A stretch of DNA of 64,000 bases from an uncultured Chlamydiales bacterium (GTDB lineage: Bacteria > Chlamydiota > Chlamydiia > Chlamydiales > Rhabdochlamydiaceae): positions 960,001 through 1,024,000 of the forward strand of contig OY969554.1 in assembly GCA_963700985.1 (NCBI GenBank). The letters run 5' to 3'. The stretch's first letter is position 1. Each line of letters begins with the position of its first letter. Shown in pieces: positions 38,922 to 41,334 of the stretch. The translations under genes were made by a program, and so were the position numbers. The notes beneath the pieces are model-generated. The model ran no database searches, was not told the origin of the DNA, and was given only the letters and a program-made list of their open reading frames with translations.

Positions 38922-39869
38922 TCAAGGCGATGATGTACTAAACAGGGAAGAGATTGACTTCGCACCGACGATAGAATCTATCGCCTTAGCAAAAAGAGGG
39001 GCTACGGACACGATCTCGAGTCTCTCTTGATTGATCTCGGGAGTCAATGGCACCGTATTACTAACCAGCATCTTCTCAATCGCACTTTCTTCGAACGCCT
39101 TTCCAACAAAGAGGCCATGTGTAACTGCACCGCAAACTCGCTCTGCGCCTGCATCTTTACATACCATAGCCGCCGTCTTCAGCGTCTCTCCTGTCGAGCA
39201 GATGTCATCGACGATCAGGACATCTTTGCCCTTCACGTCCCCTATAAGGGCATTCATCTCTACTCGCTTTGCACTAACTCGACGCTTGTCCACAATTGCA
39301 TATTCGCATTTAAGCGCTTCTGCAAAGGAACGCGCTAACTTAACACTCCCAACGTCTGGAGCCACCACCACACACTTGTTCAACTTTAAACGCTGCACGC
39401 CTTCTAAGAGCACGGGCCGAGCGTAAAGGTTGTCCACTGGGATGTTGAAAAACCCCTGAATCTGCTCTGTATGCAGATCCATTGAGAGCACTCTAGTTAC
39501 TCCAGCTCGCTCAAGAAGATCAGCGACGAGTTTAGCCGTAATCGGCTCTCTTGCTGTTCCCTTGCGATCTTGGCGCGCATACCCAAAATAGGGCAGCATA
39601 GCCACGATCGATCGAGCGGAGGCGCGCTTCATAGCGTCGACCAAAATCAACAATTCCATGAGATAGAGATTGGGATGTCGTGCGACAGACTGCAAAAGGA
39701 AGACATCCCTACCACGGACGTTGTCTAAAACATGAACGCCTATCTCACCATCTGGAAAAGTCTCAATTGTCACCTTACCAAGTTGCACTCCGACACAGTT
39801 TGCAATTTGCTCGGCCAGCTCCGGGTGGGAGGTGCCTGCAAAGAGCATATATCCATTATCATTGTGCAT
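38922..39869 (-). CDS. prs: Ribose-phosphate pyrophosphokinase
   Basis: FPDGE, PYFGYARQDRK, DLH, VDDICSTGET; likely start ATG 39869, downstream of the tRNA. Confidence 0.96.
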   Translation of the reverse strand: MHNDNGYMLFAGTSHPELAEQIANCVGVQLGKVTIETFPDGEIGVHVLDNVRGRDVFLLQSVARHPNLYLMELLILVDAMKRASARSIVAMLPYFGYARQDRKGTAREPITAKLVADLLERAGVTRVLSMDLHTEQIQGFFNIPVDNLYARPVLLEGVQRLKLNKCVVVAPDVGSVKLARSFAEALKCEYAIVDKRRVSAKRVEMNALIGDVKGKDVLIVDDICSTGETLKTAAMVCKDAGAERVCGAVTHGLFVGKAFEESAIEKMLVSNTVPLTPEINQERLEIVSVAPLFAKAIDSIVGAKSISSLFSTSSP

Positions 39870-39882
39870 CTTGTTTACTACT

Positions 39883-39954
<72 letters not shown>

Positions 39955-40091
39955 TCAAATGGCAAATATTAAAAATTCAAAGAACCATGCTACTAAAGCA
40001 GCAGATTTTAAAGCAATATATGAAGACAACCTTCCCTCTTGCGCGATATTTCCAGTATTTTTGAAATTTTTTTTAATGATACCGACTATAG

Positions 40092-40315
40092 ACATGTCGG
40101 ATGGTGCGTCCGTTGGCGCCCCTCCTGCGACCACCTTGCGCCTCACCTCGACTTGCCAAATCGCGTGCTCGGAAGCGGTCCGTGCACAGCACTGTCCCGC
40201 CCGCCTTTTGGCTTTCCTGCGCTGCAATTTTGCTTCGCGATCTGAGTCGTTGGGCTGCTCAACGCGTTCCCTCCCCATTAGCTTCGCTTGGGGCCCCTTC
40301 CACGTCATCTCGCAG
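40092..40315 (-). repeat. Structured GC-rich element, copy 1 (ncRNA or palindromic mobile element)
   Basis: Reverse complement aligns end to end with 40356-40596 (CTGCGAGA...CCGACATGT), with compensatory stem changes. Confidence 0.8.
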
Positions 40316-40355
40316 AACCTGCATAAAATGAAAAAGCAACCTTCTTAGAATAGCA

Positions 40356-40596
40356 CTGCGAGACGACGCGAGAAGGACCCGCACCGCAAGGTGTGGGAAG
40401 CGAGCGCTCGAGCAGCCCGCGGCCTCGGATCGCAAAGCAAAATCGCACCCGCAGGAGAGCCGTAAGGCGTACGGGGTTGTACTGCGTACACCCCGTCTAC
40501 GAGGATGCGATTTGGCAAAGCGAGGCGAGGCTCAAGGGGGCCAGCGGGGTGGTTCCGAGAGGGACACGTAAGTGCCCTCCAGAACCCCCGACATGT
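40356..40596 (+). repeat. Structured GC-rich element, copy 2
   Basis: Nested stems; three c-GNRA-g loops (GCAA, GTAA, GTAA); homologous to copy 1. Confidence 0.8.
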
Positions 40597-40647
40597 GAGA
40601 AAGAGGCTAAGAAAAAACCAAACATTCCCAAAAAAATAAATTACTTA

Positions 40648-41277
40648 TTATTGGGGGTGGGTGTTGATGATGTGTTTGAAGCGGCGGGAGGCTTGGTAGT
40701 GCTCGATGATGGGGTCGTCTATGGCTTTTTCATCGCCTGGGTGTCCGGCAACTTTGTACCAAGCGAGCGGCAGATTGCGCAGATCGATGCCCATCGCCTT
40801 GAACTCTTTGCTTAAAAGCACATCTCTAAGACCAGCCTGATCCCAGAACTCTTCCGTACGGTTCTCGCGCATCATCTCTTTAACACACGTTTGCGCCCAT
40901 TTGCGCAAAAGCTCCTGCGACTTTTCCGTGTAATTAGCAAAAACAGTCCCAGACATCACTTTGGAGAGATTTGTATCTGGCAGCTCAGGATTGATCCGCA
41001 CAGCAAAGTCTGCAGAGAAAACATCCAGTAAAGGAGGCTGCTTTACAAACACCGCATCCGCATCCACCCATAACACCTTTTTTTTGAGCTCTTGCAGCTT
41101 CTGATAGAGAAAAAAAGGTTTAAAGGCGCAATTGAGCTCCCAGCTTCCAAATGAGTCGATCCCATCAATTGAGGTTTCCAAACCAAATTTCTTGCAAGAA
41201 GCAATTAAGTTTTTGACTTCATCTTGATAAGGGGTGTTCTTTGTAAAAAAAGAAACGATGACAGGAAAATTTGCCAT
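40648..41277 (-). CDS. Putative nucleotide-diphospho-sugar transferase
   Basis: KPFFL..VLWVDADAVF (DxD), SGTVF, WDQAGL, IEHYQASR. Confidence 0.75.
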   Translation of the reverse strand: MANFPVIVSFFTKNTPYQDEVKNLIASCKKFGLETSIDGIDSFGSWELNCAFKPFFLYQKLQELKKKVLWVDADAVFVKQPPLLDVFSADFAVRINPELPDTNLSKVMSGTVFANYTEKSQELLRKWAQTCVKEMMRENRTEEFWDQAGLRDVLLSKEFKAMGIDLRNLPLAWYKVAGHPGDEKAIDDPIIEHYQASRRFKHIINTHPQ

Positions 41278-41334
41278 ATAACTCTCCGTGAGTTAAAAAA
41301 TAATTATAAGAAATCTTGTAACCCGGGCCTTTCC

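Follow-up and report, generated by a model that had tools for sequence, protein, structure and literature searches.

The question raised by this locus is whether a pair of structured, back-to-back sequences beside a tRNA-Gln gene is a non-coding RNA or a palindromic mobile element. The pair lies in a 64,000-nucleotide (nt) stretch of an uncultured Chlamydiales bacterium (positions 960,001 to 1,024,000 of contig OY969554.1, assembly GCA_963700985.1), called "the window" below; the host genome is a single contig of 2.07 Mb. We conclude that the pair is probably an old and itself probably immobile copy of a non-autonomous transposon (MITE, short for miniature inverted-repeat transposable element), which is widespread in the Rhabdochlamydiaceae and related Chlamydiales and carries a conserved structured module that probably works at the RNA level. 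Judged by comparison of genome sequences, the MITE family is new: it is a non-coding palindromic repeat that transposes with target duplications in at least two lineages. The element is a polar foldback, with two GC-rich arms of about 235 nt reading outward from a short AT-rich center, each arm comprising three hairpin domains and conserved single-stranded linkers.

The original prediction had described two diverged copies of one element pointing away from each other across a 40-nt AT-rich spacer, within a GC-rich island, and this description was borne out. The island occupies 40086-40604 and has a GC content of 0.61 overall and 0.63-0.645 in 200-nt windows, compared to 0.448 for the genome. 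Aligned as inverted copies, the two arms correspond from one end to the other (BLAST: 73% identity across 185 nt; global alignment: 75-77%); both start with CTGCGAGA and both have CCGACATGT near the 3' end. A repeat search of the element returned arms with lengths of 91 and 38 nt and complementarities of 74% and 82%, respectively. The limits first given, 40092-40596, located the arms correctly, stopped 6 nt short of the outer end of the minus arm and left out any outer tails; the TAGAC seen "just outside" the first copy is part of the minus arm itself, which continues through CTATAG to 40086. The stop-poor frames, which had been likened to those of Rickettsia palindromic elements, are a mere effect of GC-rich repeats. 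Copies differ by several 1-nt insertions or deletions (indels), and the open reading frames (ORFs) of the window element are short and lack conservation.

Arms were scored with a covariance model, R1, which was built on 25 arms and has 174 positions, from GAGCAGCC to CTAT, domain 1 lying outside it. The parts of the window element are as follows; the limits of domains and tails are approximate.

40086-40604, no strand: element core (left arm, 40-nt spacer, right arm), delimited by alignments within the genome
40086-40315, minus strand, read 5' to 3' from 40315 to 40086: left arm, "beta" type, R1 score 170.5 bits
40315-40253, minus strand: left-arm domain 1, hairpin closed by CTGC...GCAG
40252-40126, minus strand: left-arm domain 2, long branched hairpin
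40125-40099, minus strand: left-arm domain 3, terminal hairpin
40100-40086, minus strand: left-arm tail, ending CTATAG
40316-40355, no strand: central AT-rich spacer, 40 nt, with the motif TTCTTAGAAT 6-15 nt upstream of the plus arm
40356-40604, plus strand: right arm, "alpha" type, R1 score 150.9 bits
40356-40417, plus strand: right-arm domain 1
40418-40544, plus strand: right-arm domain 2
40546-40589, plus strand: right-arm domain 3, hairpin
40590-40604, plus strand: right-arm tail

An nhmmer profile of four arms, combined with a scan for the terminal motif, placed elements at about 10 sites in the same genome. Their sizes were 474, 514, 519 (the window element), 1044, 304, 80 and 68 bp, plus partial copies, and nhmmer together with R1 counted 13 arms at no fewer than eight loci. 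Three elements of this genome are (-)(+) arm pairs like that in the window. The reverse complement of the window element is collinear with C1:1193912-1194425 and C1:320125-320598. Its minus arm shares 90% identity with the right arm of the 1194-kb element and 87% with that of the 320-kb element; its plus arm shares 87% identity with the 1194-kb element's left arm. The arms within any one element of this genome are only about 75-80% alike, with the exception of the 802-kb element (94%); in another element, L159, the two arms are 93% identical. The identities between elements, together with the collinearity, indicate that the unit is a polar "alpha arm - spacer - beta arm" that is copied whole, and that the copy in the window lies in the opposite orientation to the other two. 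The pair is thus one unit and not two independent copies, as had been supposed.

For the comparison with relatives we refer to the genome of the window as G000, to four genomes of its genus as G001, G003, G004 and G005, to one of its family as G065 and to one of another family (f23) as G193. Copies in the genus of the window are evidently old. In G004, elements share 75-80% identity with one another (maximum, 91%) and retain full-length arms. Typing of arms as alpha or beta failed across species because the arms of G001 are mosaics. Arms from the same locus in G000 and G001 were no closer to each other than other pairs of arms, and shared ancestry is therefore indistinguishable from repeated insertion.

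Building a covariance model and searching this genome and other Chlamydiota with it, as the original prediction had suggested, revealed many dispersed copies. R1 gave more than 450 matches in 129 genomes of the same family, with an arm in 55 of the genomes and in 21 of 40 genera; the record titles of these element-bearing genomes name Rhabdochlamydiaceae and other Chlamydiales metagenome-assembled genomes (MAGs). G004, G001, G015, G065, G072 and G076 contain at least 21 arms each. In a sample of 151 genomes across the phylum, arms were found in the families f1 (10/21), f23 (5/18), f22 (2/17), f5 (2/19) and f19 (1/14), while none was detected by R1 in 27 small (1.0-1.2 Mb) genomes of f20. The arm module, found in the family of the window and in four others, appears to have persisted across at least five chlamydial families. 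With BLAST, an arm was detected in 11 of 24 further genomes from the same family, and 16 genomes from other families of the order gave none. A scan of public genomes for an exact pattern recovered at least 50 stretches, whose titles name Rhabdochlamydiaceae, Parachlamydiales, Chlamydiia or Chlamydiota MAGs and some Verrucomicrobiae. A blastn search of a plasmid collection gave no match to the element.

The outward-facing (-)(+) arrangement is the usual one. It was present at 12 of 16 distinct loci in relatives and at all 20 G004 loci, where spacers measure 4-259 nt. Among 76 arms in MAG stretches there were 23 outward pairs; 30 arms were unpaired, some of them at stretch edges. Full-text literature searches on chlamydial MITEs or repeats, and a term search of one genome paper, yielded no description of the repeat.

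Covariation and strand of the arm fold

It had been predicted that the arms keep their pairing while their sequences diverge, and that selection acts on a three-domain fold. On the two window arms alone, RNAalifold gave 57 pairs, 12 of them changed on both sides, in agreement with the first point; covariation across the arms of the family strongly supports the second. When the window arms were placed on the 33-pair family consensus, 25 pairs were identical, 5 compensatory, 2 changed on one side with pairing kept and 1 broken. Folding energy compared to shuffled sequences was significant for the plus arm only (z = -5.2, with 0/200 shuffles as good, against z = -1.3 and 19/200 for the minus arm).

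An RNAalifold consensus from a MAFFT alignment of 28 arms had 42 pairs, 28 of which showed double changes. A larger alignment of 104 arms (101 distinct) from 64 sources, with 33 pairs, was fitted to the model and so leans towards structure: 97.4% of its 3237 cells pair, compared to 84.8% in shuffled alignments (0 of 500 shuffles reached the observed value) and 29-52% when partners were slid by 1-3 columns. Double changes occurred in 24 of the 33 pairs and in 389 cells, a count that is inflated by related copies and does not represent independent events. Both limits tell against a selected fold and have to be set beside these values.

Domain 1, which R1 does not cover, was read by eye as a hairpin closed by CUGC/GCAG, with an inner stem (CGC/GCG, CAC/GUG, CGU/ACG) and a GAG/GAG opposition that alternates with GAC/GUC; RNAalifold on a MAFFT alignment of this domain returned no structure because of gaps. 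The terminal hairpin exists in at least four unrelated sequence versions, all of which pair. The linkers GAGCAGCC, CGAG(G/C)AC, CAAG and CCGACATGT are nearly invariant.

All arms were aligned in the outward-reading direction. At the 33 model pairs, G-U or U-G occupied 177 cells and A-C or C-A only 13; a fold on the opposite strand would give the reverse ratio. This excess places the fold on the strand that reads outward: the top one in the right arm and the bottom one in the left. Taken together, these data show that the arms keep a conserved, strand-specific three-domain fold, as predicted from their aligned sequences.

The fold has no counterpart among the Rfam covariance models, as the original prediction had anticipated. 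At the gathering threshold Rfam found only tRNA in the window. In E-value mode, the best match within 39950-40700 was that of a miRNA hairpin to the foldback, at 22 bits compared to a cut-off of 70 bits.

Two variable features of the arms were also seen. Three arms in the window's genome (C1:320125-320330 in L003; C1:803433-803759, L008:1443-1769; and C1:1580593-1580896 in L005) have some 75 additional nt, inserted as a module at the tip of domain 2. This module starts GGCTGTTGAAGACATG, contains its own hairpin, has no Rfam match and may be either a mini-repeat nested in the arm or an expansion domain that is optional; an Rfam search of an insert-bearing copy of the element was likewise negative. 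Beyond CTAT, many arms continue into a small hairpin (TATGG, 3-4 nt, CCTAAA) followed by an A-run, as in the flank of C1:1580593-1580607 and in L028, L030 and L040. This tail hairpin is not in all copies, no covariation was seen in it, and it presumably resembles the receptor of a GAAA tetraloop.

Transposition and the outer ends

The reading of the pair as a palindromic mobile element is upheld by multiple dispersed copies, by orthologous sites that are filled or empty and by relatives with terminal repeats and target duplications. At the window locus (prs - tRNA-Gln - glycosyltransferase), the element is present in G000 and G001, and the site is empty in G003, G004 and G005; two of the five same-genus genomes with enough flank aligned, the window's own included, are therefore filled. 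The conserved flanks lie only 69 nt apart in G005. At the 1194-kb locus, both G000 and G001 have an element about 40 nt past the stop codon of the same gene, where G003 has 61 nt instead. Contigs from four DNA runs contained no empty-site allele and nothing else decisive. Downstream of tRNA-Gln, where G000 has the element, G003 (L042) has a different palindromic repeat of about 170 nt, made of GTGGAC-containing units.

In G065 the copies are 98-99.8% identical. The full element measures about 745 bp and consists of two arms round a spacer, bounded on either side by an AT-rich outer end of 67 nt. It begins with CAGGG and ends with CCCTG, and three full copies have perfect 10-bp target duplications on their flanks. 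Miniature copies of 166-215 bp consist of the outer ends and one terminal hairpin, lacking domains 1 and 2; two of them have perfect 10-bp duplications and one a 9/10 match. The end pattern had 40 matches in this genome and 0 in a reversed control.

The same genome contains 13 near-identical insertion sequences of 1301 bp of the ISAs1 family, with CAGGGCC... ends and 10-bp duplications, encoding a 424-amino-acid protein with an ISAs1-type N-terminal domain (PF13808, 55 bits). Such ends and such a duplication length are the very features that PMC11946415 gives for the ISAs1 family. Taking a CAGGG start, direct repeats of 8-10 bp and a cognate transposase as the marks of an ISAs1-derived MITE, the G065 copies have all three. 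Because of the shared ends, the equal duplication length and the joint recent activity, we infer that the ISAs1 transposase moves the G065 element.

G193, from family f23, has a unit of about 450 bp in at least 17 near-identical copies, comprising one full arm and a remnant of the first domain of the other. Its ends are a different, 16-nt terminal repeat (79 matches, compared to 0 and 1 in controls), and two copies have 8-bp duplications. Since the same arms are found within G065-type and G193-type ends, one arm module occurs in two different vehicles.

A number of observations weigh against extending these results to the window copy and to the family at large. The ends of the G065 MITE and of ISAs1 have only CAGGGC and a loose A-rich block in common, and ISAs1 transposase genes do not follow the element through the family, being present in 15 of the 55 genomes with the element and in 23 of the 74 without it; for these two reasons the mobilization of the G065 element by ISAs1 is stated here as probable. 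ISAs1 as a general partner was therefore rejected: it would account for G065 and not for the whole family. Empty sites and target duplications had been proposed as checks, together with a cognate transposase. Empty orthologous sites were found, and so were duplications in G065 and G193; at the window copy we found no clear terminal repeat or target duplication, and no ISAs1, Y1 or TnpB gene was found in its genome. A comparison of 40 ends from G004 and 17 from G000 yielded no common terminus beyond CTAT and defined no duplication.

Conservation in the genus of the window stops at ...CCGACATGTCTAT, and the flanks differ; a TA on each side is compatible with a TA duplication without proving it. 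IS630 (DDE_3) as the source of such a duplication was discarded, being present in 0 of 5 element-rich genomes. The window copy has no CAGGG ends and its genome no ISAs1 transposase, so that it was rejected as an ISAs1-derived MITE; only the first 20-22 nt of its plus-arm tail match the G065 outer end (91-95% identity). On its left flank, likeness to the orthologous intergenic DNA of four same-genus genomes ends at about 40011-40017, and on its right flank likeness returns at about 40658-40663. The 67-nt length of the outer end in G065 would fit limits of about 40017 and 40658 for this copy, which delimit two uncertain features:

40018-40085, no strand: possible decayed left outer end
40605-40661, no strand: possible decayed right outer end

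The outer ends of the window copy would thus have decayed, and the copy is presumably immobile.

The 68- and 80-bp miniatures of the window's genome were set aside as proof of transposition by terminal repeats, as they may arise in place by deletion between two domain-3 hairpins. A subfamily in G004 (L067, L069, L072, L073, L076, L082, L085, L086) shows 30 additional conserved nt, ending TTTCTAAAA, beyond one arm and a T-rich extension of another kind beyond the other; within a single genome, therefore, subfamilies are not alike in their outer ends. The recurrent 30-nt flank was considered as an empty site and rejected, as it is specific to the subfamily and always lies beside an element.

Possible roles of the arms

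The G065 miniatures, which lack domains 1 and 2, have duplications of their own, and these two domains therefore appear dispensable for transposition. In the mechanism that we propose, transposases supplied in trans would act on short outer ends: in G065 on the 67-nt AT-rich ends, with the co-resident ISAs1-family insertion sequence as the likely mobilizer and 10-bp duplications as the product, and in G193 on the 16-nt terminal repeat, with 8-bp duplications. The transposase would have no need of domains 1 and 2, and the module would be selected to fold as an outward-reading single strand on each side. The arms would then be superfluous to transposition and kept for a role at the RNA level.

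On the simplest interpretation of the strand bias, the putative RNAs would most likely be made as a divergent pair from the center, a step that we regard as evenly poised. More tentatively, and with doubt prevailing, the arm may represent a new class of three-domain structured RNA of about 235 nt, occurring as divergent pairs in transposons, carried by at least two unrelated transposition systems and kept for an RNA-level activity of its own and not for transposition. Its activity could be that of a ribozyme or of a scaffold for proteins, or it could act as a regulator through which obligate intracellular chlamydiae tolerate insertions or profit from them.

The signals for transcription argue against divergent RNAs. 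A simple sigma-70 consensus scan of 39500-41300 returned 0 sites (1.4 expected). Upstream of the arm starts, the only conserved features were a weak T.TTA box at -13 to -9 and GG(T/C)(A/T), in a set of 69 sequences of which about 8 are false positives. Some spacers are only 4-20 nt long, too short for two ordinary promoters.

One possibility is that the fold works as single-stranded DNA: the outward strand ending at the transposon tip would fold during transposition or replication and aid synapsis, target choice or repair. The failure of the consensus scan to find a promoter and the existence of very short spacers would suit this explanation, and the G-U (in DNA, G-T) asymmetry suits either nucleic acid. 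The favored strand of each arm also has its 3' end at the tip of the element, and the outward strand ending at the tip is the one that a DDE transposase would transfer. However, the G065 miniatures still transposed without domains 1 and 2, leaving fresh 10-bp duplications; two end types with the same arms are hard to square with the chemistry of one transposase; and DDE transposases of this kind act on double-stranded ends. We consider a role as single-stranded DNA rather unlikely.

Another possibility is that the fold is unselected and that compensatory changes came from hairpin-templated repair, gene conversion in palindromic DNA or descent among repeats. Quasi-palindrome correction is a known mutational process, the kinship of copies overstates the number of independent events, and the near-identical arm pairs of the 802-kb element and L159 suggest conversion. 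Templated repair, on the other hand, would not produce the excess of G-U over A-C on one strand, nor would it hold the linkers GAGCAGCC and CGAG(G/C)AC invariant across five families; and the G004 copies, just 75-80% identical, have yet kept full-length arms. This explanation is improbable.

It could also be speculated that the arms are relic omega RNA scaffolds of TnpB or IscB (as in the palindrome-associated transposable elements, PATEs, of IS200/IS605), or giant REPIN-like doublets moved by Y1/RAYT. Their size of about 235 nt is suitable, the terminal hairpin is followed by about 11-13 conserved nucleotides and then variable flank, and TnpB is common, occurring in 66 of 129 family genomes. 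In addition, the left-end 16-mer of a G193 TnpB element matches the G193 MITE terminal repeat at 14/16 positions. Both links were nonetheless rejected. TnpB and Y1 are missing from the window's own genome; TnpB is also absent from element-rich genomes (G004 and G001, with more than 20 arms each, and G002), and Y1/RAYT (PF01797) is absent from G000 and from the element-rich G004, G015, G065 and G072. By hand count, TnpB occurs in 32 of the 55 genomes that have the element and in 34 of the 74 that lack it. By coordinates, no arm adjoins tnpB in G065, G072, G076, G071, G022 or G015, and R1 found none beside tnpB in G193. To our knowledge, IS200/IS605 elements do not make target duplications of 8 or 10 bp. 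An origin of this kind is largely refuted and very improbable.

The TnpB-bearing element of G193 is of the IS605 type (L138, L139, L142 and L147; TnpB gene at L147:1549-2487, PF07282, E 1.8e-19), with a left-end hairpin and a promoter-like stretch, in which the 16-mer lies.

Finally, a pair of ordinary fixed small RNA genes, merely duplicated and not mobile, would account for the conserved fold and for the lack of a transposase inside the element, but is refuted by the target duplications in G065 and G193, by dozens of dispersed copies at non-syntenic sites, often with contig ends within them, and by orthologous sites that are filled or empty.

Having weighed these alternatives, we return to a MITE with an RNA-level module and compare it to known systems. 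Bacterial MITEs whose transcripts fold, reviewed in PMC3184786 and PMC10969869, include Correia/NEMIS of Neisseria, ERIC/IRU of enterobacteria and RUP/BOX of pneumococci. They are non-coding, multi-copy, intergenic inverted repeats that are moved in trans by insertion-sequence transposases, and whose copies are often co-transcribed with neighboring genes. The chlamydial element is likewise a non-coding, multi-copy, intergenic inverted repeat. In contrast to such MITEs, each of its arms measures about 235 nt and has conserved linkers and three domains that covary; the element is polar, with two arm types about 75% identical and a fold that is strand-specific on both sides; and its arm module occurs in at least two end types (with 10-bp and 8-bp duplications), while arm-less miniatures still move. 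With the ISAs1 family and its MITEs, the G065 element shares CAGGG...CCCTG ends and 10-bp duplications, as in the 13 co-resident ISAs1 copies; the differences are those given above, namely the lack of such ends and duplications at the window copy and of the transposase in its genome, the loose likeness of MITE and insertion-sequence ends beyond CAGGGC, and an ISAs1 distribution untied to that of the element.

REPINs and BIMEs are doublets of repetitive extragenic palindromic (REP) sequences moved by RAYT (PMC3116915, PMC2817692). Like these, the chlamydial element has two inverted hairpin-forming units of two sequence types round a short spacer and is intergenic, often between convergent genes. 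REP units, however, are single hairpins of 20-40 nt, whereas the chlamydial arms are six-fold larger and branched, and RAYT/Y1 is missing from the window's genome and several element-rich ones. In common with TnpB/IscB omega RNAs and IS200/IS605 PATEs there is a structured scaffold of about 200 nt ending just inside the element boundary, but the chlamydial arms neither adjoin nor co-occur with nuclease genes, and target duplications are present. The likeness to Rickettsia palindromic elements, which had been suggested, is an analogy only. Both are palindromic selfish repeats in obligate intracellular bacteria. Rickettsia palindromic elements are known for in-frame insertion into genes, whereas the chlamydial element is intergenic at all nine loci examined in the window's genome, and no reading frame survives the 1-nt indels between its copies.

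Environmental chlamydiae have not been cultured or grow only with difficulty, and next to nothing is known of their non-coding repertoire. In this transposon, conservation is stronger in an internal module than in the ends responsible for movement, and the module is common to two kinds of vehicle. The fold is elaborate, RNA-like and seemingly unneeded for jumping, and its purpose is the question that the element raises: of what use is a structured RNA to a miniature transposon or to its host? This question is testable. If the arms prove to be active RNAs, they would form a large and easily alignable new RNA class. In practical terms, R1 annotates hundreds of loci, and the family breaks assemblies, as contig ends often fall within its copies.

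Neighboring genes, cargo and insertion sites

To the left of the window element lies the tRNA-Gln gene (39883-39954, minus strand) and beyond it the gene for ribose-phosphate pyrophosphokinase. The proximity to a tRNA, noted in the original prediction, is incidental, as a tRNA was present in the fetched stretch at only 3 of 30 element loci. The right neighbor, 44 nt away and convergent, is a glycosyltransferase-like ORF (Nucleotid_trans-like, 209 amino acids; 40648-41277, minus strand). This ORF matches its same-genus orthologues only from about 40658-40663, so that its last codons and stop (40648-40650, minus strand) may be derived from the outer tail of the element.

Over the nine loci examined in the window's genome, 11 flanking ORFs point into the element and 6 away from it, the right neighbor in the window being assigned by hand. 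In three cases the element is set between convergent genes, at a distance of 27-92 nt from their stop codons, and two elements are flanked by bidirectional terminator-like hairpins. Elements seem to settle beside gene terminators, and the family would mark insertion hot spots near gene 3' ends. The terminator-like hairpins (A-run, GC stem, T-run) were seen 30-45 nt outside the element ends at C1:802716, C1:803759 and C1:812571.

In other copies the place of the spacer is taken by 4-259 nt or by cargo genes. Clustering of neighboring ORFs at about 110 loci revealed no recurrent partner protein beside the element. The centers of longer copies contain a DUF2442 gene (in the window's genome; E 8e-24), a weakly matching HNH_2-like ORF (4.5e-4), a short-chain dehydrogenase gene (SDR; E 2.6e-50) or a DDE fragment. 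The center of one G065 element holds a whole DDE_5 insertion sequence, which was considered as the element's own transposase and rejected as an unrelated insertion; its seven other intact copies are not flanked by arms. Beside a full G065 element with a DDE_5-hit center (G065:C1:1847649-1848204; L165:537-1135), the left end of the MITE is repeated four times in tandem at 178-nt spacing. The 1044-bp element of the window's genome (C1:802716-803759; L008:726-1769) has the DUF2442 gene, a 97-amino-acid ORF, in its center, together with a duplicate of the first 40 nt or so of the arm and its upstream AT-rich box.

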